Origin: Candidatus Kapaibacterium sp.
Lineage (GTDB): Bacteria; Bacteroidota; Ignavibacteria; Kapaibacteriales; UBA4661
Direction of reading: 5' to 3'
Assembly: GCA_025358765.1 (NCBI GenBank)
Contig: JANYIG010000168.1
Span: forward strand, 325-64,324
Length of the DNA: 64,000 bases
In this document: positions 3,418-41,101 of the stretch, one piece after another
How the letters are laid out: the number at the start of each line of letters is the position of its first letter
Numbering within the stretch: position 1 is the first letter of the stretch
The notes under the pieces: model-generated
The model's database searches: none
Told to the model about the DNA's origin: nothing
Seen by the model: the letters and a program-made list of their open reading frames with translations, nothing else
Made by a program: the position numbers and the translations under genes

Positions 3418-3858
3418 TTACTTCACTGTCACCGATCTTGTTGTTGTAAAAATATTCTCAACATTGTTATCTGTTACTACTCCCGTACTGAGTACAATTA
3501 CCGTACCTTTAGCAAGATTTGCACCCACCGTGTAGGGTATTGTCTGAACCGTTGCTGTAGATGACGGGGCAAATGTGACGGGAACTGAGACTGCCACTGC
3601 TCGGCTTGCTGTGCCGACTGCAGCGTAAAGTTTAACTTCTTTAATAGGGCGGTCGAAGGAGCGTGTTGTCACGCTTGCCGTTATCTGTGTTCCTGCCGCT
3701 ACCGATGCGGACGAAATGGTAAAAGCATCTATCAGCGCGGCAGAACCTTGAACGGTTACTAAATCTGTAAGGACGTTATTCTCTTTGTAGCACGATGTCG
3801 CTACCAACGAGGAAAAGAGAACAAGCGAACAGATGAAAATTTTTGGAATTGGTTTCAT
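3418..3858 (-). CDS. hypothetical lipoprotein
   Basis: Signal peptide plus lipobox (LVATSCYKE). The rest is Ser/Thr/Val-rich. Confidence 0.4.
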   Translation of the reverse strand: MKPIPKIFICSLVLFSSLVATSCYKENNVLTDLVTVQGSAALIDAFTISSASVAAGTQITASVTTRSFDRPIKEVKLYAAVGTASRAVAVSVPVTFAPSSTATVQTIPYTVGANLAKGTVIVLSTGVVTDNNVENIFTTTRSVTVK

Positions 3859-8492: not shown

Positions 8493-8587
8493 ACAATATT
8501 GAAGAAAAGGTGAATAAAGGTTTGATTAGCAGTATTGCTGGTTACAGATTTTTGATATTGAACTTGTTTGATATTTCTTCGAGATTT

Positions 8588-8680
8588 ACCGCAGAGGCGC
8601 AGAGGTAGAGAGCCGATAAAAAGAGCTTTTGAAACGTATTCCACAATCTTGATTCTCTGCGCCCTCTGCGCCTCTGCGGT
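8588..8680. repeat. long hairpin: 18-bp perfect inverted repeat (ACCGCAGAGGCGCAGAGG) with a 57-nt loop, built from tandem CGCAGAGG/CTCTGCGCC units
   Basis: Read directly from the sequence. Located in the divergent region between susC and gpx. Confidence 0.6.
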
Positions 8681-8734
8681 AAAAAATCTTAAACAACTTC
8701 ATTGGCAAGCAAAATATCGTTTTATGCAGCCAAA

Positions 8735-16407: not shown

Positions 16408-16459
16408 GAAGTTTGGCGATGCAATTATTTTTAGAGTTTATTCCGATTCCTTTTGTCTA

Positions 16460-16550
16460 TCATTCCAGCGAAGGCTGGAATCCAGATGTAGTGCGAACTG
16501 TGGCTGGGGCTGGAATGACTGTCCCTGTGCAATTATCGGAATAAGCTCTC
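16460..16550 (+). repeat. REP/MITE-like palindromic intergenic element, copy D
   Basis: CATTCCAGCGAAGGCTGGAATCC...GGCTGGGGCTGGAATGAC...TATCGGAATAAGCTCTC matches copies at 35414, 36324 and 40966. Confidence 0.55.
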
Positions 16551-16570
16551 TTATCTTCCGAATGAATTAT

Positions 16571-16616
16571 TTTCTACCTGCTGGGCGCTTTCTTCAGTGT
16601 CCGGCAGGTTTTTTTA
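16571..16616 (+). terminator. terminator-like hairpin plus T-run
   Basis: CCTGCTGG...CCGGCAGG followed by TTTTTTTA, after the 14224..16407 gene. Confidence 0.4.
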
Positions 16617-28850: not shown

Positions 28851-29321
28851 ATGACTTTTTCGTTCAAAACCCGCATGACAGCTACGTTTGCTGCTGCCAT
28901 TCTGCTAATTCTCGTTTCTTGCACCAAAAGCGACGACAAAAACGGCAACACGGCTGAAAAGCCTGCTGAACAGGCATTAAAAGCTAAGGTACAATATGGC
29001 AAAATCAAAGAAGTACAACTTACTGCCACCATTGACAACGATCTTGCTCACAAAGGCGGCAAAGTGTTCGATGTGACGTGTACAGGTTGCCACAAGTATG
29101 ATGAACGGTATGTTGGTCCGGCATTGCGGGAGGTGACTAAGCGCCGTCAGCCGGAATTTATTATGAATATGATTTTGGATACCGAGACGATGATTGAAAA
29201 AGATGACACCGTAAAGTGCTTATTGCAAACCTATTTGCAAAAGATGCCCAATATGCAAGTTGATGAAAAAGATGCCCGTGCGGTGTTAGAACATTTGCGT
29301 GACATTGCAGATAAAAAATAA
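28851..29321 (+). CDS. c-type cytochrome lipoprotein (single CXXCH), nos-associated
   Basis: Lipobox LVSCTK, heme-binding CTGCHK, and a distal Met. Immediately upstream of nosZ. Confidence 0.7.
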   Translation: MTFSFKTRMTATFAAAILLILVSCTKSDDKNGNTAEKPAEQALKAKVQYGKIKEVQLTATIDNDLAHKGGKVFDVTCTGCHKYDERYVGPALREVTKRRQPEFIMNMILDTETMIEKDDTVKCLLQTYLQKMPNMQVDEKDARAVLEHLRDIADKK

Positions 29322-29399
29322 CGAACAACGCTAATTACCGCTTGCTTTCAGCGTTGGCAAGCACGTGTACAACATTACAATTACGCGGGAGACAACCGT

Positions 29400-31373
29400 A
29401 TGAAATCGAAACTTTTTGCAGTGATTATTGGTGCGAGTATCGTCTCAATAGCGCTTTTTATTACTGCTTGTCCATCAACAAAACAAGCCAGTGTGGGTGA
29501 TTCCGACGCAGCCGCAAAGGTGTATGTTGCGCCTGGCAAACAGGATGAATTTTACGCCTTCATGTCAGGTGGTTTTAGCGGACAAATTGGCGTTTATGGT
29601 TTGCCGAGCGGACGCTTATTGCGCGTGATCCCCGTTTTTTCGCAAGACCCTGAAAAAGGGTGGGGGTACTCCGAAGAAACCAAACCCATGCTCAATACTT
29701 CGGGCGGCTTTGTGCCTTGGGACGACACACACCATTTACAACTTTCGCAAACCGATGGTGTGCCAGACGGACGCTGGATATTTGTGAACGGCAATAATAC
29801 GCCGCGCATCGCCCGCATTGACCTTCGCACGTTTCGTACTGTAGAGACAATGGAAATTCCTAATACTGCGGGAAACCACGCCTCGCCGTTCATAACCTCA
29901 AACACAGAATACACCGTTGCCGCTACGCGCTTTAGTGAGCCGTACCAGTTCGAGAATACTGATGTTGCGATTGCGGATTTCAAAGATAAATTCAAAGGCG
30001 CATTTACGTTTGTGAAGGTGGATAAAACATCGGGGTCAATGAACATCGCTTTCCAAATTCTTATGCCGGGATTTAACTATGACCTTTCGCACGCCGGAAA
30101 AGGGAAATCTGAAGGCTGGTTCTTCTTTACCTGCTACAACAGCGAGCAGGCAAACACGATGCTTGAGGTGAATGCAAGCCAAAAAGATAAGGATTATATT
30201 GCGGCGGTAAATTGGAAAAAAGCTGAAGAATACCTCGCGCAAGGCAAAGGGCGTGATGTGAAAGCAAGCTATATGCACAATGTGTATGACGAATCAACCC
30301 ATTCGGCGCATTCCGAGATACTGAATACATTAAAAACCCTCAATCCAGCTGAATGCCCGGGATTGGTCTATTTTATCCCAACGCCAAAATCCCCACATGG
30401 TTGTGATGTTGATCCTTCCGGTGAATTTATTGTCGGTGGCGGTAAACTTTCCACTGTTATCCCTGTGTTTTCATACACAAATATTCAAAAAGCGATTGCT
30501 GAAAAGAACTTCGAGGGCGACCTTTACGGTATCCCTGTGTTGAACTACAAAGCTGCTTTGCATGGCGAGGTAGAAAAACCCGGATTAGGACCACTTCACA
30601 CCGAGTTTGATGGTAAAGGTAATGCCTATACGTCATTTTTTGTGTCGTCGGAAGTTGTAAAATGGGGTTTAGCAGATTGCAAAGTTATTGACCGTACGCC
30701 GACGTATTATTCTGTTGGGCACTTGGTTATTCCTGGTGGCGATAGCAAAAAGCCGTGGGGAAAATATCTGGTGGCAATGAACAAAATCACTAAAGATCGC
30801 TATTTGCCGACCGGTCCGGAGTTGTCACAATCCGCACAACTCTACGATATTTCGGGCGAAAAAATGAAGCTACTGCTCGATTTCCCGACTATCGGAGAGC
30901 CGCATTACGCGCAAGCAATCCCAGCAGAGCTTGTGAAGGATAAATCGTTGAAAGCCTTCAAACTCAAGGACAATCACCATCCGTATGTTACGCTTGGCGA
31001 GAAGGAAGCCCGCGTGGAGCGTAAAGGCAACGAGGTACATGTCTATATGACGGCTATTCGTTCGCATTTTAAGCCCGATAACATCGAAGGCGTAAAAATG
31101 GGTGATGTGGTGTATTTCCACGTGACAAACCTTGAACAAGACTGGGATGTGCCGCACGGTTTTGCGGTTCGTGGCGCAGAAAATGCCGAATTGCTTATTA
31201 TGCCGGGTGAGACCTCGACACTCAAGTGGGTTCCCAAAAAATCGGGTGTTCACGCCATGTATTGCACCGATTTCTGCTCTGCATTGCACCAAGAAATGCA
31301 AGGATATGTGCGCGTTTCGCCCGCAGGCTCGAAAGTAGAGTTGAGCGCAAATGCAAACGGTTCAAAACAATAG
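29400..31373 (+). CDS. nosZ: nitrous-oxide reductase NosZ, Sec-type (clade II)
   Basis: 657 aa. CuA site ...HAMYCTDFCSALHQEMQGYV at the C-terminus. The N-terminal signal lacks a twin-arginine motif. Confidence 0.9.
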   Translation: MKSKLFAVIIGASIVSIALFITACPSTKQASVGDSDAAAKVYVAPGKQDEFYAFMSGGFSGQIGVYGLPSGRLLRVIPVFSQDPEKGWGYSEETKPMLNTSGGFVPWDDTHHLQLSQTDGVPDGRWIFVNGNNTPRIARIDLRTFRTVETMEIPNTAGNHASPFITSNTEYTVAATRFSEPYQFENTDVAIADFKDKFKGAFTFVKVDKTSGSMNIAFQILMPGFNYDLSHAGKGKSEGWFFFTCYNSEQANTMLEVNASQKDKDYIAAVNWKKAEEYLAQGKGRDVKASYMHNVYDESTHSAHSEILNTLKTLNPAECPGLVYFIPTPKSPHGCDVDPSGEFIVGGGKLSTVIPVFSYTNIQKAIAEKNFEGDLYGIPVLNYKAALHGEVEKPGLGPLHTEFDGKGNAYTSFFVSSEVVKWGLADCKVIDRTPTYYSVGHLVIPGGDSKKPWGKYLVAMNKITKDRYLPTGPELSQSAQLYDISGEKMKLLLDFPTIGEPHYAQAIPAELVKDKSLKAFKLKDNHHPYVTLGEKEARVERKGNEVHVYMTAIRSHFKPDNIEGVKMGDVVYFHVTNLEQDWDVPHGFAVRGAENAELLIMPGETSTLKWVPKKSGVHAMYCTDFCSALHQEMQGYVRVSPAGSKVELSANANGSKQ

Positions 31374-31467
31374 TACGTTCTCTGTCCGTCGCACGGCGTT
31401 TGTCACAATTGCTGTGGCAAACGCCTGATAGACGAGAATGGCTTACAATCATTAAACTTGAATATAT

Positions 31468-32508
31468 ATGAAACCGCAATCGCGCATTCTCATGGCAGTC
31501 GCTGCGCTTATTTTATTGTTGATGTACTTGTTGCCGATGTGGAGTATTTCGCTTGATGCTCCACAGTATCCAGAAGGTTTGGGCTTAAAAATTTATATTA
31601 ACACCATCATAGGAGCACAAGAGAATGATCTGCAAAACATCAATGGGCTGAACCATTATATCGGCATGAAGCGTATAGAGCCGGATTCAATTGCGGAACT
31701 GCGGTATATGCCTGTCATTATCGGCGCATTGATTGTGTTAGGGTTGCTTATAGCGTGGAAGGGTACTTGCCGGATGGTGGGTGCTTGGGTGCTATTATTT
31801 GTGGTTCTGAGTATTGTGGGAGTGACCGATTTTTACCTCTGGGAATATGACTATGGACACAACCTTGATCCGCATGCCGCTATCAAAATTGATGGAATGT
31901 CATACCAACCGCCATTGCTGGGTTCTAAGCAGCTTTTGAATTTTACGGCATATTCATACCCCGACATTTCCGGATACATTGCCGGAGTGTCTATTTTGCT
32001 CGGCGCGGCAGCATTTGTGCTGTCGTGCAACCGTAAAAGAATCCTACCAGCAAAAAATATTACCGCTGCGACAAGCGTAGTGCTGGCTTCTTTGATTCTT
32101 GTTTCTTGTGAACCAAAACCACAGTCAATTTCCGTTGGACAAGAAGAATGCGCCCACTGTAAAATGAGCATTAGTGATAAGCGTTTTGCTGCCGAACTTT
32201 TGACCCAAAAAGGCAAGGCATATAAATTTGATGCAATTGAGTGTATGGCAGCCTTTGTGGGTGAAAAGACTGTTGCTGTAGATGATATTCACTCGCTTTG
32301 GGTGGTGGATTTTGCCCATCCCGATGAGTTTTTGAATACCAAAAAATCATTCTTTCTTCACAGCCCACTGATTCAAAGCCCGATGAGCATGAATTTAGCG
32401 GCATTTCCCAGCCGCGAAGCCTTCGATAAAGCCCAGAAACAGTTTGGTGGCGAGCTTTATTATTGGGATAGCGTTCGTCTTTTGGTAGCGAAGGGAATGG
32501 GGAAGTAG
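31468..32508 (+). CDS. nosL: membrane-domain (NosB-like?)::NosL copper chaperone fusion
   Basis: The N-terminal 190 aa carry 4 TM helices. Then comes an internal lipobox-like LILVSCEP and a NosL-like domain with CAHCKM...FDAIEC... Position is between nosZ and nosD. Confidence 0.5.
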   Translation: MKPQSRILMAVAALILLLMYLLPMWSISLDAPQYPEGLGLKIYINTIIGAQENDLQNINGLNHYIGMKRIEPDSIAELRYMPVIIGALIVLGLLIAWKGTCRMVGAWVLLFVVLSIVGVTDFYLWEYDYGHNLDPHAAIKIDGMSYQPPLLGSKQLLNFTAYSYPDISGYIAGVSILLGAAAFVLSCNRKRILPAKNITAATSVVLASLILVSCEPKPQSISVGQEECAHCKMSISDKRFAAELLTQKGKAYKFDAIECMAAFVGEKTVAVDDIHSLWVVDFAHPDEFLNTKKSFFLHSPLIQSPMSMNLAAFPSREAFDKAQKQFGGELYYWDSVRLLVAKGMGK

Positions 32509-32529
32509 AAATGTAGAAAATGAAAAAAT

Positions 32530-33843
32530 TTGTCGAGGTTGATTGTTGTTAATTCCTTTATGACATTGCTCCAGACCATAATATTACCAATCGTTGCGAG
32601 CCTTTTTTTGCTTTCGCAACTTACCGCAAAGACGTTTGACGTGTATCCGTCGGGCGGTGCGCTTGCGCGGGTGGTTGCTTTAGCTCATGCTGGCGATACA
32701 CTGCTTTTGCACGAGGGAGTGTACCGCGAAAGCGGCATCGTGGTTGATAAACCACTCTCATTGCAGGGGCAGCGTTCTGGGGGCGCTGTGGTTTTGGACG
32801 CGGAAAACAAAGGCGTTTCGATTCTTTTTATCAGGGCGAACAATGTTTCGATTTGTGGTTTGACCTTCAAAAACGTTGCCGTTGCGTACACAACCGACAA
32901 TGCCGCCATTCGTGCGGATAACGTTCGCAATTGTGTGATTGAAAACAATACGCTTGACAATACTTTTTTTGGCATTTACCTTGCAAAATCTTCGTTTTGC
33001 CGTATTGCCAACAATGTTCTCACTGCCCATGGGAGCCATGAATCCTCGTCGGGCAATGGCGTTCATTTGTGGCGCTGCGACAGCATTACCATCCATCACA
33101 ACACCGTGAATGGTCATCGGGACGGTATTTACTTTGAGTTCGTTCATACAGCAGTCATCACGCAAAACCTGAGTACCGGAAACTTACGTTATGGTTTGCA
33201 TTTTATGTTTTCAGATTCCTGCGTTTATGAGCAAAACACGTTTCGTCGCAACGGTGCTGGAGTAGCGGTGATGTACACGCATAACGTCCATATGGTGAAC
33301 AACCGATTTGAAGACAATTGGGGTGCAGCAGCGTACGGGGCGCTTTTCAAAGACATTGATGACAGTGAAGTCCGTGGCAATGTTTTTGTCAATAACACTA
33401 TTGGGCTTTACGCTGAAGGTTGCAATCGCTCAATCATTGAACAAAATGAGTTTTTGCACAATGGATATGCGGTGAAAATTATGGCTAATTCGATGAGCAA
33501 TATATTTACGCATAACACATTTGAGGGTAATTCATTTGATGTTTCGACCAATAGTCTCCAAAACTACAACACCTTCCGGGGCAACTATTGGAGCCGTTAT
33601 CAAGGATACGATCTCAACCACGATGGCGTGGGCGATGTGCCGTTTCGCCCCGTGAGACTTTTTTCGTTGATCGTTGAACAACAAGCGCCCGCACTCGTGT
33701 TGATGCACAGTTTGTTCGTGGAATTGCTTGATATTGCTGAACGAGCCTTGCCTTCGCTGACCCCTGAAACGCTTGTGGATAACGAACCACTTCTGAAGCC
33801 TTATCGGAAGCCTTTTTCCCATTCATCGCTTTCTCGAAAATGA
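32530..33843 (+). CDS. nosD: NosD, periplasmic right-handed beta-helix copper-processing protein
   Basis: Repeated N-x-I/V-x-x-N beta-helix units (NNVLTAHG, HHNTVNGH, NNRFEDN, NNTIGLY). 4-bp overlap with nosF. Confidence 0.8.
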   Translation: MSRLIVVNSFMTLLQTIILPIVASLFLLSQLTAKTFDVYPSGGALARVVALAHAGDTLLLHEGVYRESGIVVDKPLSLQGQRSGGAVVLDAENKGVSILFIRANNVSICGLTFKNVAVAYTTDNAAIRADNVRNCVIENNTLDNTFFGIYLAKSSFCRIANNVLTAHGSHESSSGNGVHLWRCDSITIHHNTVNGHRDGIYFEFVHTAVITQNLSTGNLRYGLHFMFSDSCVYEQNTFRRNGAGVAVMYTHNVHMVNNRFEDNWGAAAYGALFKDIDDSEVRGNVFVNNTIGLYAEGCNRSIIEQNEFLHNGYAVKIMANSMSNIFTHNTFEGNSFDVSTNSLQNYNTFRGNYWSRYQGYDLNHDGVGDVPFRPVRLFSLIVEQQAPALVLMHSLFVELLDIAERALPSLTPETLVDNEPLLKPYRKPFSHSSLSRK

Positions 33844-34613
33844 CAATTATTGAACTTAAGAAGTTAAAAAAAAACTTCGGCACGCTAAGTGTTTTGAAAG
33901 GTGTCAGCTTGAGTATTGAAGCAGGGCTGACGGTAGCGATTTTGGGACCAAATGGTTCTGGTAAAACTACAATTATGAAAAGCCTATTGGGGTTAGTGAA
34001 ACCTGACTCGGGCGAACTCTGGTTTCGGGGCGAATTGCTTACCGCAAAAGCTATCAATGACGGCGCATACAGGCAAAACATTGGCTATATGCCGCAGATA
34101 GCAAGGTTCGAGGAAAACATGACAGCACGCGAGATGTTGGCAATGGTGCGTGATATTCGTAATACGACGGCTTCCCATCAACTGACGAAGTATGTGGAAG
34201 AATTAACACGGCTGTTTGGTTTGGAAACACAACTCGATAAGCCGCTCAAAACCTTGTCCGGCGGTACAAGGCAAAAAGTAAATGCCGTGCTTGCATTTAT
34301 GTTTGAGCCGGAGTTGCTTATGCTTGACGAACCCACGGCTGGGCTTGACCCGATAGCGGCAAGTAACCTTAAAGACCTTATCCTTGCTGAAAAAAAACGC
34401 GGTCGAACCATAGTTCTCACCTCGCATGTTATGAGTGACATCGAAGAGCTTTCCGATATAATTGTGCTGCTCGTTGAAGGCACAATTTATTTTCAAGGTA
34501 GTATAAACGAGCTTCTTGGGCAAACTCAGGAACGTACTATTGAGCGAGCCATTGCACGAATTCTCAAAAGCCAAAGCACCAAAAACATCAAAGACCATGA
34601 ACACAGCAGGTAA
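33840..34613 (+). CDS. nosF: NosF, ABC transporter ATP-binding protein
   Basis: Walker A GPNGSGKTT, signature LSGGTRQK, Walker B LLMLDEP. Confidence 0.85.
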   Translation: MTIIELKKLKKNFGTLSVLKGVSLSIEAGLTVAILGPNGSGKTTIMKSLLGLVKPDSGELWFRGELLTAKAINDGAYRQNIGYMPQIARFEENMTAREMLAMVRDIRNTTASHQLTKYVEELTRLFGLETQLDKPLKTLSGGTRQKVNAVLAFMFEPELLMLDEPTAGLDPIAASNLKDLILAEKKRGRTIVLTSHVMSDIEELSDIIVLLVEGTIYFQGSINELLGQTQERTIERAIARILKSQSTKNIKDHEHSR

Positions 34614-35403
34614 GATTTTCAGGTATCAACTTCGTGCTGCCGTGCGGAGCCGATGGGTACTGCTTTATGCGGGATTTTTTTTCGCTGCCGCAGAAGGGTT
34701 ATTACGGTTCGGCGGCGACAGCGCAAAGGCTGCGGTTAGTTTGCTCAATATTGTGCTGATGTTGCTTCCTTTGGTGAGCATCCTGTTTGGAACGACGTAT
34801 CTGTACAATGCCCGTGATTTTGTGGAAATGTTGCTTGCACAACCTGTCCGTCGTTTGTCGTTGTTTACGGGTTTATATGCGGGGTTGACCGTGCCTTTGA
34901 TGGCGGCATTTGTGATAGGTGTGGGAGTACCCTTTGTTACGCATAGCTTCACGAGTAGTACGCCGAGTAGCGGGATAGATGCTTCAGCTCTTACAATTCT
35001 TTTGTTTGCTGGTGTTGCGCTGACGGCGATTTTTACTGCTTTTGCGTTCCTTATTGCTTCGTTGTGCGAAGATAAAGCCTTGGGAATGGGAGTAGCACTT
35101 GTTGTATGGCTTTTGTTGGGTATTCTCTACGACGCAGGTATTTTGGCAATAGTGTGGACATTCCACGATTACCCGCTTGAAACACCGGTTTTGGCGATGA
35201 GTATTGCAAACCCGATAGATTTGGCGCGAATTCTGGTAATGCTAAAGTTCGACATTGCCGCATTGATGGGATACACAGGCGCGGTATTCGAGAAATTTTT
35301 TGGCACCGGTTTCGGATTAGCACTATCGGCATCCTCATTATTCCTTTGGATAGTGCTTCCTTTCTGGGCTGGAATCAAGGTATTTATCAGAAAAGATTTC
35401 TGA
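34597..35403 (+). CDS. nosY: NosY, ABC-2 type permease
   Basis: Start MNTAGKIFRYQL overlaps the nosF stop. Six TM helices. Confidence 0.75.
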   Translation: MNTAGKIFRYQLRAAVRSRWVLLYAGFFFAAAEGLLRFGGDSAKAAVSLLNIVLMLLPLVSILFGTTYLYNARDFVEMLLAQPVRRLSLFTGLYAGLTVPLMAAFVIGVGVPFVTHSFTSSTPSSGIDASALTILLFAGVALTAIFTAFAFLIASLCEDKALGMGVALVVWLLLGILYDAGILAIVWTFHDYPLETPVLAMSIANPIDLARILVMLKFDIAALMGYTGAVFEKFFGTGFGLALSASSLFLWIVLPFWAGIKVFIRKDF

Positions 35404-35413
35404 ACATATAGTT

Positions 35414-35480
35414 CCGGCTAATGCTGGAATCCACTGGCTTGTCGAACGTCATGGAAGCCGGACTTCGCTGGCATGACAAT
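35414..35480 (+). repeat. REP/MITE-like palindromic intergenic element, copy A (partial)
   Basis: GCTGGAATCCACTGGC...GTCATGGAAGCCGGACTTCGCTGGCATGAC is related to copies B, C and D. Confidence 0.5.
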
Positions 35481-35579
35481 CAAAAAAAGCTCTTGAATTC
35501 AAAAATGATGTACTAATGATGTACTAAACGAGCATTTCTTTTTCGTTCCACATTTTTTCTCACGTATTCCACAAACACT

Positions 35580-36152
35580 ATGAAAACCCTCCATATTCTT
35601 ACAACAATCGCCGTAGTAGCATTGTTTTCCACAGCTTGCACAAAACAAAACGACGATGCAGCAGCCCGCTCTGCATCGTCCGCCTCGGAACAACCGAAAG
35701 GCGCTGGGCAAGAAGCAGTGAAGGATGATGATTCACAAAAAGACGTTGTGAAGGTTGCCGTTGGCTCACCCGATCACAGCACACTGGTAACGGCGTTAAA
35801 AGCGGCAGACCTCGTAACGTCGCTCTCCAATGTTGGTCCGTTTACCGTTTTTGCACCAACGAATGCAGCGTTTGATAAGCTCCCCAAAGGTACAGTCGAA
35901 GACCTTTTGAAGCCGGAAAACGTGAACAAACTGCGTGACATTTTGCAACACCACGTAACGGTTGCCGTGTATGAGGCATCATCGCTGAACGACGGGCAGA
36001 TATTGAGCATGGTGGATGGCACGTCGGCAAAAATCACAAAAAAAGGAAACGATCTTTTCATTGAAAATGCAAAAATTATTGCGTCTGTTCGCGCATCCAA
36101 TGGTGCTGTTCATATCATAGATGCTGTGGTTGTGCCACCAGCGGGGAAATAG
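35580..36152 (+). CDS. fasciclin (FAS1) domain lipoprotein
   Basis: Lipobox FSTACTK, then FTVFAPTNAAFDKLPKGTVEDLL...HHV... and the FAS1 signature. Confidence 0.8.
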   Translation: MKTLHILTTIAVVALFSTACTKQNDDAAARSASSASEQPKGAGQEAVKDDDSQKDVVKVAVGSPDHSTLVTALKAADLVTSLSNVGPFTVFAPTNAAFDKLPKGTVEDLLKPENVNKLRDILQHHVTVAVYEASSLNDGQILSMVDGTSAKITKKGNDLFIENAKIIASVRASNGAVHIIDAVVVPPAGK

Positions 36153-36323
36153 TTTTTTCTGGGAGTGCCTGAAATTTAATAAGTCTTTCATCCATTACTG
36201 AACGTTTTGCGGTATAATGAGCGCAGAGGCAGGGAGCCACGTACCCGTGGGGAGAGTTTGAAGATAACATGGAGCTTTCTCTTTTTATACCTTAGAGTGT
36301 AATCCGATTATTGTCCAGGAACC

Positions 36324-36403
36324 GTCATGCCAGCCCCAGCTTTCGCTGGGGTGAACTCCGGCTGGGGGCTGGCATGACAACAACAGTAATCGGAATAAAC
36401 TCT
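36324..36403 (+). repeat. REP/MITE-like palindromic intergenic element, copy B
   Basis: GTCATGCCAGCCCCAGC...GCTGGGGGCTGGCATGAC (17-bp stem with nested hairpin) followed by TAATCGGAATAAACTCTC. Confidence 0.6.
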
Positions 36404-36505
36404 CTTGTAGATTCTCTGCGCTCTCTTGACGGTTTCCGTCAGCCTCGGCGCTCAAATTCATTCGGTACTAAAAAGCCTTACATAAATCATTGCGATTTCA
36501 ATTTT

Positions 36506-38323
36506 ATGGTTATTACGTCTGTTCACACATTTCATATTCCCGTTATGGGGTTGGCGTTTACGATTGACACACCCATCAAGGTAGCGCGGTTCGGCATTTC
36601 GTCGGTTATGTCCATTATTGAGGATATGTTGATAGAAAAAGTACGGAGCTATTATTATCCTCAGATTAACGAAAAATACATTCCGATTTCGACGGAAGAA
36701 GAGGACTATCGCGCCAAACGTATTACGGATTATCTCAATTTGGTAAACAAAATTGTGCGCCAGCAGATAGAACACCTCAAAAATTCCCCCTTTGAAGTTG
36801 GCTCGGAAATCGTGAAATATTTTGAAATGCTCCCATCCGAAAGCCCTTTGTGGCATTTGTACGAGCGTATGAAGCAATCGAATGATGGGCTGGAAAAAGA
36901 ACAACTGGCGGCTTTCCTCAGAGAGCAGATTCGTGCGGGCAGCATAGATGTTAATATTATGACCAAAGTTGATAAAGATAATGTTGACGAAAATGGCGTT
37001 CCCATTGCCGATGGCTCGGATGCCCTTGCGGCGTTACGGGGCTACGCACGTAGCAATCTAACCGATTCGTCCGTTATCCTTTCGGCGGGAATGAACCCAC
37101 GGCTGTATAATTATTTGGGAAAACTTCAAGAGTTTGCCGCCAAAGGGTGGGGCGTGTTCGATAAAAAAGTGGTGATAAAGGTAAGCGATTATCGTTCGGC
37201 TATGATACAGGGCAAATATTTGGCAAAAAAGGGAATCTGGACGAGTGAGTTTAGAATTGAATCAGGTTTGAACTGCGGTGGACACGCTTTTGCAACCGAT
37301 GGGTATTTGATGGGTCCTATCCTTGAAGAATTTAGAGCTAAACGTGACGAACTCATCGGTGCAATCTTTGAAATTTATCAACAAGCCGCACAGGCAAAAG
37401 GTGATCCGATATTTGACGAGCCACATCCCGTAAAAATAACCGCGCAAGGCGGCATCGGCACGTTCGAGGAAGATAATTTTTTACGGAAATATTATGGATT
37501 GGAAAGCACGGGATGGGGAACACCATTTTTACTTGTTCCCGAAGCCACAACCGTGGATAACGAGACGTTGGAGCTTTTGAGGAAGGCAAAAAAAGCGGAC
37601 ATTGTTCTCAGTCATAATTCTCCATTGGGTGTACGTTTCCATTATCTTAAAGGAACAAGTGCTGAAAAAGAAAAATTTGCCCGTATACAAAAAGGTGTTC
37701 CGGGAAGCCCTTGCACCGAAAAACTTCTCGTTTCAAATACGGAATTTACCAAAGAACCTATTTGCACAGCTTCGCATAAATACCAAAAACTGAAGATAGA
37801 ACAATTACAATCATTGAACTTACCCGACGGCGAATATCAAAAACAACTTCAGCCCGTTCTGGATAAAGAGTGTCTGTGTCTTGGGCTAAGTAATGCCGCC
37901 ATCAAACGCTACAAATTGCCGCCCATTAAAAAACTTGAATCCGTCAATGTTTGCCCCGGCCCGAATATTACGCACTTCTCAAAAGTGGTTTCGTTGCAAG
38001 AAATGACCGACCATATTTACGGGCGAGCGACGGTTATAGACGAAGTTGAAAGACCGAATATGTTTATCAATGAATTAAACCTCTATATTGATTACCTGAA
38101 AGAGCAGGTAGAATCCGCCAGAGAAGGGGATACGAAGCAAAAAAAGTATTGTCGTGATTTTTACGAAAACTTAATGAACGGCATTGCTTATTACCATCAA
38201 TTAACCCAAACAGCGTTGGGCGATTCACCACAATCGAAAGAGGCTATTCGTCAAGGTCTCGATCAAGCTGAACAACGCTTGCGTTCTATAGTTGAGGATT
38301 TGAAGGCGGTCGAATATTTATAA
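36506..38323 (+). CDS. hypothetical protein, possibly FMN TIM-barrel (NMO/FabK-like) fold in the central region; start uncertain
   Basis: Long ORF from 36311 whose first 60 codons overlap repeat B, so the start was moved to MVITSVHTF. Motifs NCGGHAF and QGGIGT...GWGTPFLLVPEA resemble the AGGH and GGI...MGTRFL motifs of nitronate monooxygenase-family enzymes. Recalled from memory, so weak. Confidence 0.35.
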   Translation: MVITSVHTFHIPVMGLAFTIDTPIKVARFGISSVMSIIEDMLIEKVRSYYYPQINEKYIPISTEEEDYRAKRITDYLNLVNKIVRQQIEHLKNSPFEVGSEIVKYFEMLPSESPLWHLYERMKQSNDGLEKEQLAAFLREQIRAGSIDVNIMTKVDKDNVDENGVPIADGSDALAALRGYARSNLTDSSVILSAGMNPRLYNYLGKLQEFAAKGWGVFDKKVVIKVSDYRSAMIQGKYLAKKGIWTSEFRIESGLNCGGHAFATDGYLMGPILEEFRAKRDELIGAIFEIYQQAAQAKGDPIFDEPHPVKITAQGGIGTFEEDNFLRKYYGLESTGWGTPFLLVPEATTVDNETLELLRKAKKADIVLSHNSPLGVRFHYLKGTSAEKEKFARIQKGVPGSPCTEKLLVSNTEFTKEPICTASHKYQKLKIEQLQSLNLPDGEYQKQLQPVLDKECLCLGLSNAAIKRYKLPPIKKLESVNVCPGPNITHFSKVVSLQEMTDHIYGRATVIDEVERPNMFINELNLYIDYLKEQVESAREGDTKQKKYCRDFYENLMNGIAYYHQLTQTALGDSPQSKEAIRQGLDQAEQRLRSIVEDLKAVEYL

Positions 38324-39538: not shown

Positions 39539-40939
39539 ATGGATCATTCGGATTGTCTCATTATAGGCGGCGGATTTGCTGGCGCTTCGGCGGCGATAGC
39601 GCTTACCAAAATGGGGCGGCGTGTGACGCTGCTCGAAGCCAAAAACACCCCCGGCGGCAGAGTGTATTCGCTCGAAGACCGCGAAACTGGCGAGGCTATT
39701 GATAACGGACAACATTTGTTAATGGGGTGTTACCATCACACCTTAGATTTGTTGGCAACGCTTGGGACAGAAGGTTTGCTGCGAGCGCAAAAGGCATTGC
39801 GCGTAGATTTTGCCGATTGCTCTGGCGGCGGCGATGCGGCGATTATACGAACGCTCGACACATCGGCGTTGCCCGGCAAAGCGGGCGTTGCATGGGGGAT
39901 GTTGCGGCTTGGTGGCTTAACGATGGGCGATAAACTAAGTGCTTTGCGCTTGGCGCTTGCAATTCAGTTCAATCGTCTTCACCTCGAAGATAAAACGGCA
40001 TTACAATTTCTCAAAGAGCATCGCCAATCCGACAACCTCATCCGTCGTTTTTGGGAGCCGATTATTCTTGCCACGCTGAATGCTCACCCGTCTATTGCTG
40101 CGGCATCATTGTTAGTGGCAGTTTTTCGCAAGGCATTTTTTGCCGATACTGCCGCGTCGCGTTTATTGTTGCCCATTGCGGAATTTTCAGACTTGCTTGC
40201 TCCTTTGTCTGGCTGGTTAGAGCGGCATGATTCCTCGTTCCGTCAGGGTTTAGCGACGAATTTTATCGTGCAGGGCAATCGGGTAACAGGCGTGAAACTC
40301 AACACTGGTGAAACGCTTACTGCCGACTGTATAGTAAGCGCCGTGCCACCGCGCTTTCTGCGCAAGTTAATACCTTGCGAGACGTATCCCGATTTTTTTG
40401 CTCCATTGTCAACACTGGATTTTTCGCCGATTATTTCGGTATATATGTGGTTTGACAAGTCGTTTATCGAAACGGATTTTGTCGCAATGCTCGGTACGCA
40501 AACGCAATGGATTTTTAATCGTCGTGCTATCTGTAAAGCCAATCCCGAGGTGGTTAAACGTTTTCCGGGTCATATTTCGGTAACAATCAGTGCCGGAGAC
40601 GACTTCATCACTCAAAGTAATGATTCTCTAACGGCATTGTGTTTGGCGGAAATTCGTCGTGCATTTCCGGCGGCACGCGCCGCGACTATGCTCCACGCAC
40701 GGGTGGTCAAAGAAAAAATGGCTACCCTTAAAATTACTCCTGCGTTAGAAAAAATGCGGTTCTCGGCAGTAACGCCGCTCGAAAATCTTTTCCTTGCCGG
40801 TGATTGGACGAATACGGGATTGCCCGCCACTATTGAAGGTGCAGCGCAAAGCGGGTGGGCGGCAGCACAGGAAATTTTGCATAACCCTCACATTTTTTCT
40901 ACCAACAACGTAGCCGCTTTTGTTGAAGCAGTTCATTAG
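39539..40939 (+). CDS. FAD-dependent amine-oxidase-family oxidoreductase, HpnE/phytoene-desaturase-like
   Basis: N-terminal dinucleotide fold IIGGGFAGASAAIAL...VTLLEA...GGR and DNGQHLLMGCYHHTLDLL, which resembles the HpnE motif DNGQHLLLGAY. Confidence 0.55.
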   Translation: MDHSDCLIIGGGFAGASAAIALTKMGRRVTLLEAKNTPGGRVYSLEDRETGEAIDNGQHLLMGCYHHTLDLLATLGTEGLLRAQKALRVDFADCSGGGDAAIIRTLDTSALPGKAGVAWGMLRLGGLTMGDKLSALRLALAIQFNRLHLEDKTALQFLKEHRQSDNLIRRFWEPIILATLNAHPSIAAASLLVAVFRKAFFADTAASRLLLPIAEFSDLLAPLSGWLERHDSSFRQGLATNFIVQGNRVTGVKLNTGETLTADCIVSAVPPRFLRKLIPCETYPDFFAPLSTLDFSPIISVYMWFDKSFIETDFVAMLGTQTQWIFNRRAICKANPEVVKRFPGHISVTISAGDDFITQSNDSLTALCLAEIRRAFPAARAATMLHARVVKEKMATLKITPALEKMRFSAVTPLENLFLAGDWTNTGLPATIEGAAQSGWAAAQEILHNPHIFSTNNVAAFVEAVH

Positions 40940-40965
40940 GGTATTTTCCGCATTTCTATAGGTCT

Positions 40966-41028
40966 GTCATTCTCCTCCCGGCGAAGGTTGGGGCGGGAAT
41001 GACATAAAAAGTATTCGGAATAAACTCC
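40966..41028 (+). repeat. REP/MITE-like palindromic intergenic element, copy C
   Basis: GTCATTCTCC...GGGAATGAC followed by TATTCGGAATAAACTCC. Its tail is near-identical to copy B. Confidence 0.55.
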
Positions 41029-41101
41029 ATTAAATTTATTTTCAATCGGATGATACACAAATCTTTCCTTTAGGTCGATAAATTTGAGATAATCAGCTAT
41101 T

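Follow-up and report, generated by a model that had tools for sequence, protein, structure and literature searches.

The 64,000-nucleotide stretch of Candidatus Kapaibacterium sp. DNA analysed here (contig JANYIG010000168.1, positions 325 to 64,324; hereafter the window) carries a palindromic repeat at four intergenic sites, which we call A, B, C and D. We conclude that these repeats are very probably copies of a MITE (a miniature transposable element with inverted repeats), a non-coding derivative of a cut-and-paste DNA transposon. An earlier note on this DNA, made from the letters alone, had described a 'REP/MITE-like' family (REP, repetitive extragenic palindrome) and offered a miniature transposable element as one of several possible roles. 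That option is now strongly supported. The elements have defined terminal inverted repeats and are flanked by 3-bp duplications, the same ends bound elements with unrelated interiors in other phyla, insertions at unrelated sites are independent, copy C is nested in another repeat, and presence among relatives is patchy, the more distant relatives compared having no copy. The 'REP-like' part of the label is not sustained: outer terminal repeats and 3-bp duplications are present, and the window holds no candidate gene for a Y1 transposase. The mover is most likely a DDE transposase acting in trans.

Anatomy of the four copies

Counting confirmed that there are four repeat sites whose shared motifs lie far above chance. 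The conserved tail motif has a 13-mer core, TCGGAATAARCTC, of which the window holds exactly four matches, all inside sites A to D; 100 dinucleotide-preserving shuffles gave an expectation of 0.00. The motif GTCATKCCNGC occurs exactly five times against 0.31 expected; no shuffle reached five, and every match again falls within the four sites. A search of the window for GTCATKCCAGC, the pattern proposed in the earlier note, was informative in part. Exact matches carried signal, but with up to two mismatches allowed the 35 matches in the window were not above chance (28 expected); among matches to this pattern, the signal is therefore only in the exact ones. The family profile found no further copies in the window beyond A to D.

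Of the four exact TCGGAATAARCTC matches, one (16434-16446) reads on the minus strand and lies immediately upstream of the point at which A had been taken to start. The conserved 'tail' reported after the stem is real; it therefore forms one arm, the right one, of a terminal inverted repeat, a transposon end that had gone unrecognised. The motifs used to delimit the copies are likewise present, but the elements are larger than had been thought, the left arm ~25-30 nt upstream of the earlier start having been overlooked.

The spans of the copies were set from reading of the sequence, a repeat finder and a scan with the 17-mer (Table 1). The intact copies A, C and D are nested palindromes of 91-117 bp, bounded by a 17-bp terminal inverted repeat with the consensus AGAGTTTATTCCGATTT / AAATCGGAATAAACTCT. 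In the alignment, the 17-bp terminal repeat is followed inwards by a spacer (~10-15 nt) and then by a subterminal inverted repeat, GTCATTCCNGC; the centre is a GC-rich core that varies. The GTCATKCCNGC motif is part of the subterminal repeat, which in the fuller copies forms a hairpin of its own resembling the Neisseria Transformation Sequence (NTS). The coding capacity of the elements is limited to short open reading frames (ORFs) of repeat sequence, and no Pfam-bearing gene overlaps them. Over 36 nt, the good end of D has 94% identity with an end of a copy found in another Kapaibacterium genome (L002, below).

Copy B is a decayed relic, without a left terminal repeat and without a target duplication. 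It has GCTGGCATGACAA in common with C and starts 4 nt past the stop codon of nosY, a gene of the nitrous-oxide reductase (nos) cluster. Absorption of its left end into nosY was ruled out by the NosY C-terminus (KVFIRKDF), which is conserved in relatives.

Table 1. Copies of the element in the window and their parts (window coordinates).
Feature	Position	Strand	Details
MITE copy A, intact	16433-16549	+	117 bp; profile E 1.8e-29
A left terminal repeat	16433-16449		AGAGTTTATTCCGATTC
A right terminal repeat	16533-16549		TTATCGGAATAAGCTCT
A flanking 3-mers	16430-16432, 16550-16552		TTT, CTT; 2/3 match
A subterminal hairpin	16458-16485	+	TATCATTCCAGCGAAGGCTGGAATCCAG
Copy B, decayed relic	35407-35493	-	family profile only E 0.25
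B NTS-like hairpin	35407-35433		27 nt, 81% identical to A hairpin
B second imperfect palindrome, end	35467-35477		ends in GCTGGCATGAC
B degenerate right end	35478-35493		AATCAAAAAAAGCTCT
MITE copy C, intact	36294-36403	-	110 bp; profile E 1.8e-28
C left terminal repeat	36294-36310		AGAGTGTAATCCGATTA
C right terminal repeat	36387-36403		TAATCGGAATAAACTCT
C target duplication	36291-36293, 36404-36406		CTT, perfect
MITE copy D, internally shortened	40938-41028	-	91 bp; profile E 1.1e-18
D degenerate terminal repeat	40938-40954		AGGGTATTTTCCGCATT
D good terminal repeat	41012-41028		TATTCGGAATAAACTCC
D target duplication	40935-40937, 41029-41031		ATT, perfect

Target-site duplications and reconstructed insertion sites

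Duplication boundaries were set by one fixed rule, the match to the 17-mer alone. Placed in this way, perfect 3-bp direct repeats flank 11 of 16 elements (91-123 bp), and three more elements have flanks that match at two of three positions; chance would give ~0.25 perfect cases among 16. The duplicated triplets are of seven sequences (CTT, ATT, AAT, GAT, ACG, AGT and ACT). The flanks within the window are CTT/CTT at C, ATT/ATT at D and TTT/CTT at A. Reading the ends as GAG...CTC or as TAGAG...CTCTA, with TA, TNA or other duplications, gave no direct repeats; only AGAG...CTCT with 3 bp fits.

Two of the insertions can be undone on paper. When D is removed together with one ATT, the reconstructed empty site reads ...GCA GTT CAT TAA, with an in-frame stop at the same codon as in the present sequence. 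The present stop codon of the amine-oxidase-family gene (39539-40939), TAG, takes its T from the duplication and its AG from the first bases of D. The insertion thus changed CAT TAA to CAT TAG (40935-40940, 41029-41033) and left the protein unchanged. When C is removed with one CTT, the halves of a different palindromic repeat rejoin, GCGCAGAGGCAGGGAGCC ... GATTCTCTGCGCTCTC, and an uninterrupted copy of that repeat stands at 8585-8683. The rejoined halves indicate that C is nested in the loop of another repeat.

This second palindromic family has the form GCGCAGAGG(C/T)AG(G/A)GAGCC ... GATTCTCTGCGC(C/T)CTCT. Its arms are perfect over 21 nt in the copy at 8585-8683 (TTTACCGCAGAGGCGCAGAGG / CCTCTGCGCCTCTGCGGTAAA); the other copy, at ~36206-36430, is the one split by C.

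In the mechanism that we propose for the MITE, a transposase encoded elsewhere in the genome would bind the terminal repeats and move the element in trans, and a 3-nt staggered cut in the target would leave a 3-bp duplication on repair. A 3-bp duplication is usual for IS3, for IS30 and for certain IS5 subgroups. IS3 elements end in TG...CA, which the present ends do not, and IS1031-type elements duplicate TNA, which does not describe the triplets found here. By duplication length alone, the transposase may belong to the IS5-type subgroups or to IS30. As a tentative lead, some IS5-family ends have the general form G-R-G...T-Y-C-G-A-W-W, like the ends described here. IS5/PIF-Harbinger elements and Tourist-like MITEs share the 3-bp target duplication, but they typically duplicate TNA or TWA, whereas the triplets here are ACG, GAT, AGT, CTT, ATT and others. 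Literature searches on the terminal-repeat sequence returned unrelated primers and no paper with the sequence, and a search on IS1031 and MITE returned nothing usable.

The same ends in other genomes and metagenomes

A two-arm pattern, with the arms 65-95 nt apart, was run on two collections, the genomes of 185,579 species (one each) and metagenome contigs. The genome collection gave four loci; copy A itself was not among them, so that the source genome is not a species representative in that collection. One of these, in a Candidatus Kapaibacterium metagenome-assembled genome (MAG; GCA_004292595.1, locus L002), has the same interior as the window copies, whereas the interior of a second, in a Caldilineales MAG (L001), differs from them. 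The other two (L003 and L004) are in two Clostridia MAGs that have one common sequence, with a weaker left end. The metagenome contigs gave 17 loci and at least two further interior types, comprising a subfamily of six copies (L015, L019, L021, L022, L024 and L025), a second subfamily of two (L026 and L029) and several singletons. Loci L013, L017 and L028 were set aside as a CCGAGT-rich tandem repeat, and L014, L016 and L020 as chance matches or other families.

Between groups, the interiors are unrelated hairpins; the ends AGAGTTTATTCCGATTT / AAATCGGAATAAACTCT are common to all groups. These 17-bp ends are present in A, C and D (one end degenerate), in L001 and L002, and in at least 11 metagenome elements. 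The members of the six-copy subfamily are 83-100% identical to one another, and their 60-nt flanks are at random-level similarity, which indicates that the insertions were independent. The occurrence of one 17-bp end across at least three phyla, with lineage-specific interiors, implies a widespread and still unnamed transposase lineage that generates a 3-bp duplication.

Within the six-copy subfamily, stem changes between copies are compensatory in one hairpin (CCTTGCGG..CCGCAAG vs CCTTACGG..CCGTAAG) and in the other (CACAGGG..CCCTGTG vs CACTGGG..CCCAGTG). Some copies have the loop of one hairpin in the reverse sense (TTTGACAA vs TTGTCAAA), as expected from hairpin-mediated inversion. At the two Clostridia loci (L003 5152-5184, L004 87-120), another, incomplete copy of the right terminal repeat comes immediately after the first, AAATCGGAATAAACTCA GAATCGGAATACTCGAGG. 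The L003 element lies within ~30 nt of a contig end and the L004 element ~10 nt from the start of the retrieved stretch; the doubled right end could be the edge of a larger element.

Viral contigs gave six singleton matches to the exact 17-mer, all within unrelated sequence and at the estimated chance level, and 19 matches to the pattern of terminal repeat plus hairpin, all of them chance matches in coding sequence. BLAST of a metagenome MITE against plasmids found no match. A match to the terminal repeat on a Hymenobacter plasmid lies inside a recombinase gene and was dismissed as chance.

An NTS-like hairpin inside the element

Peptides read from the element (e.g., HSSEGWNP) are reminiscent of those of the Neisseria dRS3 repeat. 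The NTS has the sequence CGTCATTCCCGCGMAVGCGGGAATCYRG, and SsnA, a 94-residue GIY-YIG protein, cuts single-stranded DNA beside the hairpin that it forms (PMC11893778). Motifs of this type, captured by the search pattern for the Ssn-related motif (SRM), HGTCWYN(0-2)YYVSBRHN(0-5)WNVSBRGN(0-2)RNCYNB, multiply near ssnA homologues in four phyla, and the published gene architecture is NTS-ssnA-NTS (PMC11893778). The Ssn nuclease family was described in 2025; MITEs go unmentioned in that report (PMC11893778).

The subterminal hairpin of A, TATCATTCCAGCGAAGGCTGGAATCCAG, matches the Neisseria NTS consensus at 24 of 28 positions, and two of the four differences amount to a compensatory change of a C-G stem pair to A-T. 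The hairpin of L002, TGTCATTCCCGCGCAGACGGGAATCTAG, matches at 26 of 28 positions and fits the SRM pattern exactly. A shuffled window gives only ~0.1 matches to the NTS, even with up to seven mismatches allowed. The first reading of the sequence had not noticed that GTCATKCC is part of a hairpin of this kind. DNA stems of 7-8 bp are predicted for the hairpins of A, B and L002 (for A, 8 bp and z -3.82 with DNA parameters). In the alignment, C and D have lost the local hairpin by internal deletion; what they keep is two GTCATTCCNGC half-sites, inverted and paired with one another. Copies B, C and D have no match to the SRM pattern, and the window has no exact SRM match, vs 0.23 expected per shuffle.

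When the L002 element was compared by BLAST with the plasmid collection, it matched the NTS repeats of two N. gonorrhoeae records at 40 or more places each, as well as sequences of Photobacterium, Azospirillum, Cupriavidus, Legionella and sphingomonads. The two gonococcal records (PLSDB NZ_CP119142.1 and NZ_CP119140.1) are 2.17 Mb long and labelled plasmids; from this size we take them as whole chromosomes, and they inflate the plasmid match counts. In one gonococcal copy the likeness appeared to reach into the terminal repeat (47 nt). This was rejected on comparison of eight NTS copies in 50 kb, the upstream flanks of which all differ and contain no terminal repeat. Photobacterium sp. GJ3 (NZ_CP073579.1; L061 1311-2738) has a series of hairpins with exactly the core sequence of the Neisseria NTS, CGTCATTCCCGCGCAGGCGGGAATCCAT. 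The distances between them are multiples of 200 bp and their upstream flanks are similar; the series looks like a tandem array of NTS-bearing units. No small GIY-YIG ORF was found by motif scan in any retrieved locus, including the Neisseria and Photobacterium stretches.

The interior hairpins may make the element a carrier of Ssn sites. Because the layout of end, hairpin, core, inverted hairpin and end resembles the published NTS-ssnA-NTS arrangement apart from the outer ends, the element might be a vehicle for Ssn-type hairpins, possibly an internally deleted remnant of a transposon with an ssnA cassette, and NTS or SRM hairpins could ride on a DDE-mobilised MITE. We regard this extension as unlikely. 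If true, it would provide the first concrete mechanism for the dispersal of Ssn nuclease target sites within and between phyla, and a transposon chassis with NTS-like hairpins would be a directly testable answer to how such hairpins multiply.

A different explanation takes the NTS/SRM hairpin itself as the primary unit, a REP-like sequence spread by an enzyme that acts on single-stranded DNA, either the Ssn GIY-YIG nuclease or a REP-associated tyrosine transposase (RAYT), with the outer repeat as no more than a part of a longer host palindrome. The match of the interior to the Neisseria NTS, far beyond chance, would suit such an origin, as would the retention of hairpins without terminal repeats in B and the multiplication of such hairpins near ssnA genes in four phyla (PMC11893778). 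We nevertheless consider it improbable: the same 17-bp ends bound elements whose interiors are without NTS-like sequence, and the variable 3-bp duplications flank the outer ends, not the hairpins. In addition, the flanks of the Neisseria NTS are variable and lack such a terminal repeat, and no GIY-YIG or Y1-transposase-like ORF was seen in the window.

Set beside the known repeats of this kind, the element is alike in part. With the NTS (including dRS3) and the SRM it shares the subterminal hairpin architecture GTCATTCC-NGC-loop-GCN-GGAATCYRG and a predicted single-stranded-DNA hairpin. What sets it apart is the surroundings of the hairpin, a transposon-like element bounded by terminal repeats and duplications, which PMC11893778 does not describe; the motif scan found no ssnA homologue in the window, and C and D keep only inverted half-sites. 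REP sequences and bacterial interspersed mosaic elements (BIMEs) with their RAYTs are similarly short, GC-rich, imperfect intergenic palindromes in several copies. However, REPs are without terminal inverted repeats or duplications and are tied to a RAYT gene that they flank, and no such gene was seen in the window.

Sister strains and relatives

Comparison with related genomes, proposed earlier as a check on mobility, gave a mixed answer: copies are lacking in relatives and C is lacking in one sister strain, but no exact empty site emerged. Relatives with flanking proteins 51-80% identical to those of the window had no copy in the ~150 kb retrieved, including the orthologous sites of A, B and C; the orthologous intergenic regions of distant relatives cannot be aligned.

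The sister contig L036, 99.8% identical to the window, is without positions 36192-36468, a 277-bp block that comprises the second palindromic repeat and C. The edges of the block are imperfect 15-bp direct repeats, TAATAAGTCTTTCAT and TAAAAAGCCTTACAT, in place of which L036 has a single TAAAAAGTCTTACAT (3441-3455); the absence of the block could be a deletion. Copy B is identical in L036. This contig ends inside D, and those of two other sister strains (L039 and L040) end inside A. Assemblies usually break at multi-copy repeats, and the contig breaks inside A or D in three sister assemblies fit this behaviour.

Several observations weigh against our conclusion that the repeats are MITE copies. 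Searches of the window, the 68 retrieved loci, viral contigs and plasmids turned up neither an autonomous partner nor a transposase bearing these ends, although ends spaced 1-2 kb apart were not searched for in the large collections. With no autonomous element found, mobilisation in trans is what we infer. No empty site with exact MITE boundaries was found, the 277-bp block being the only polymorphism. The available sister strains all have A, B and D fixed, which gives no sign of recent activity in this lineage. The 3-mers flanking A match at only two of three positions, and copy counts cover the 64-kb window of the source genome only. As to the interior, the hairpin of A fails the SRM pattern by one base (A for G at position 2), and a scan of the window for small GIY-YIG or ssnA-like ORFs, based on motifs and not on a profile search, found none. 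The 17-mer scan also found no lone or widely spaced terminal repeats in any retrieved locus.

Comparison with neisserial repeats

Bacterial MITEs are well known; the present family is new and unnamed. Correia elements of Neisseria are ~100-155 bp long, with 26-bp terminal inverted repeats and a TA duplication. Like these and other bacterial MITEs, the element described here is ~100 bp long and non-coding, with terminal inverted repeats and a short target duplication. It is also intergenic, often abuts stop codons, would form a long hairpin if transcribed, and is patchy among strains. In contrast to the Correia elements, it has unrelated ends (AGAGTTTATTCCGATTT), a variable 3-bp duplication in place of TA, NTS-like hairpins in its interior, and hosts among Kapabacteria, Chloroflexota and others; no parent insertion sequence was found. 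The neisserial intergenic mosaic elements (NIMEs) are repeat units flanked by dRS3. They too are mosaic, modular intergenic repeats with NTS/dRS3-type hairpins as one module, but the dRS3 hairpins are outermost there, whereas in the present element a different 17-bp terminal repeat, with its 3-bp duplication, lies outside them.

Taken as a MITE, the family is of an ordinary kind, useful as an annotation aid for Kapabacteria and Chloroflexota, as a cause of assembly breaks and as a marker of strain differences. Two features lift it above the routine, the conservation of its ends across phyla and the NTS-like cargo of the Kapabacteria subfamily.

Orientation, transcription signals and regulatory alternatives

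All copies are intergenic and follow plus-strand genes, as the earlier note had stated, lying just after the stop codons. Its description of the copies as co-oriented did not survive. A strand-specific profile made from the best mutual alignment assigns A to the same strand as the Kapaibacterium copy L002 and puts C and D on the opposite one (A plus, C and D minus in the window), and A aligns better with flipped C than with C as written (score 95 vs 65). The absence of a U-tract behind the elements was upheld: no T-run follows any copy, and none was called as an intrinsic terminator. The separate terminator that had been placed after D instead follows A, where a terminator-like hairpin (16576-16609) and then TTTTTTT stand 27 nt past the element, between convergent genes; none was found after D. 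Rfam gave nothing relevant for the whole window at gathering thresholds and no match on the elements at E <=1.

These signals bear on a second explanation, that selection keeps the copies as RNA elements acting in cis on the upstream genes (by stabilising 3' ends, as processing sites or as attenuators), alike through function and not through mobility. We consider this very improbable. The copies do lie right after plus-strand stop codons and form very stable hairpins, and the hairpins of MITEs such as the Correia and ERIC elements affect mRNA stability in other bacteria. The elements also fold far better than shuffled sequence, with RNA and with DNA parameters. However, the two strands fold about equally well (RNA z -3.94 and -3.15 for A, with a DNA z of -3.62; z -6.75 vs -6.96 for C), which speaks for a palindrome at the DNA level and against a strand-specific RNA. 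Furthermore, A is inverted relative to C and D though all follow plus-strand genes, there is neither a U-tract nor an Rfam match even at the relaxed threshold, the elements are lacking in orthologous intergenic regions of relatives, and an RNA function leaves the target duplications unexplained.

An RNA role is not needed to explain the repeats. If the elements are a MITE, effects on neighbouring genes, whether through hairpins in nos transcripts or through outward promoter-like hexamers, would be a by-product and not the reason for the repeats. Such hexamers are found at the good ends of C and D (36374-36401 and 40999-41026), as the outward pair ATGACA-16 nt-TAAACT; the comparison is with a sigma-70 consensus, which may not fit this phylum.

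We give almost no credence to a third explanation, that a DNA-binding regulator uses the repeats as operators, for instance in the nos cluster that holds B and C: palindromes are typical of operators and the fasciclin gene of that cluster has two of the four copies at its sides, but A and D adjoin unrelated genes, related nos clusters are without such sequence, the same ends occur at unrelated loci in other phyla, and 110 bp with nested stems is unlike an operator.

The nos cluster itself extends over ~29000-38323 and comprises genes for a cytochrome c, nosZ, nosL, nosD, nosF, nosY, a fasciclin-domain gene and a conserved 605-aa protein without a Pfam domain. Copies B and C lie within it, on either side of the fasciclin gene. 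In relatives, a ScdA/hemerythrin gene and a GT4 glycosyltransferase gene stand exactly at the intergenic positions of B and C.

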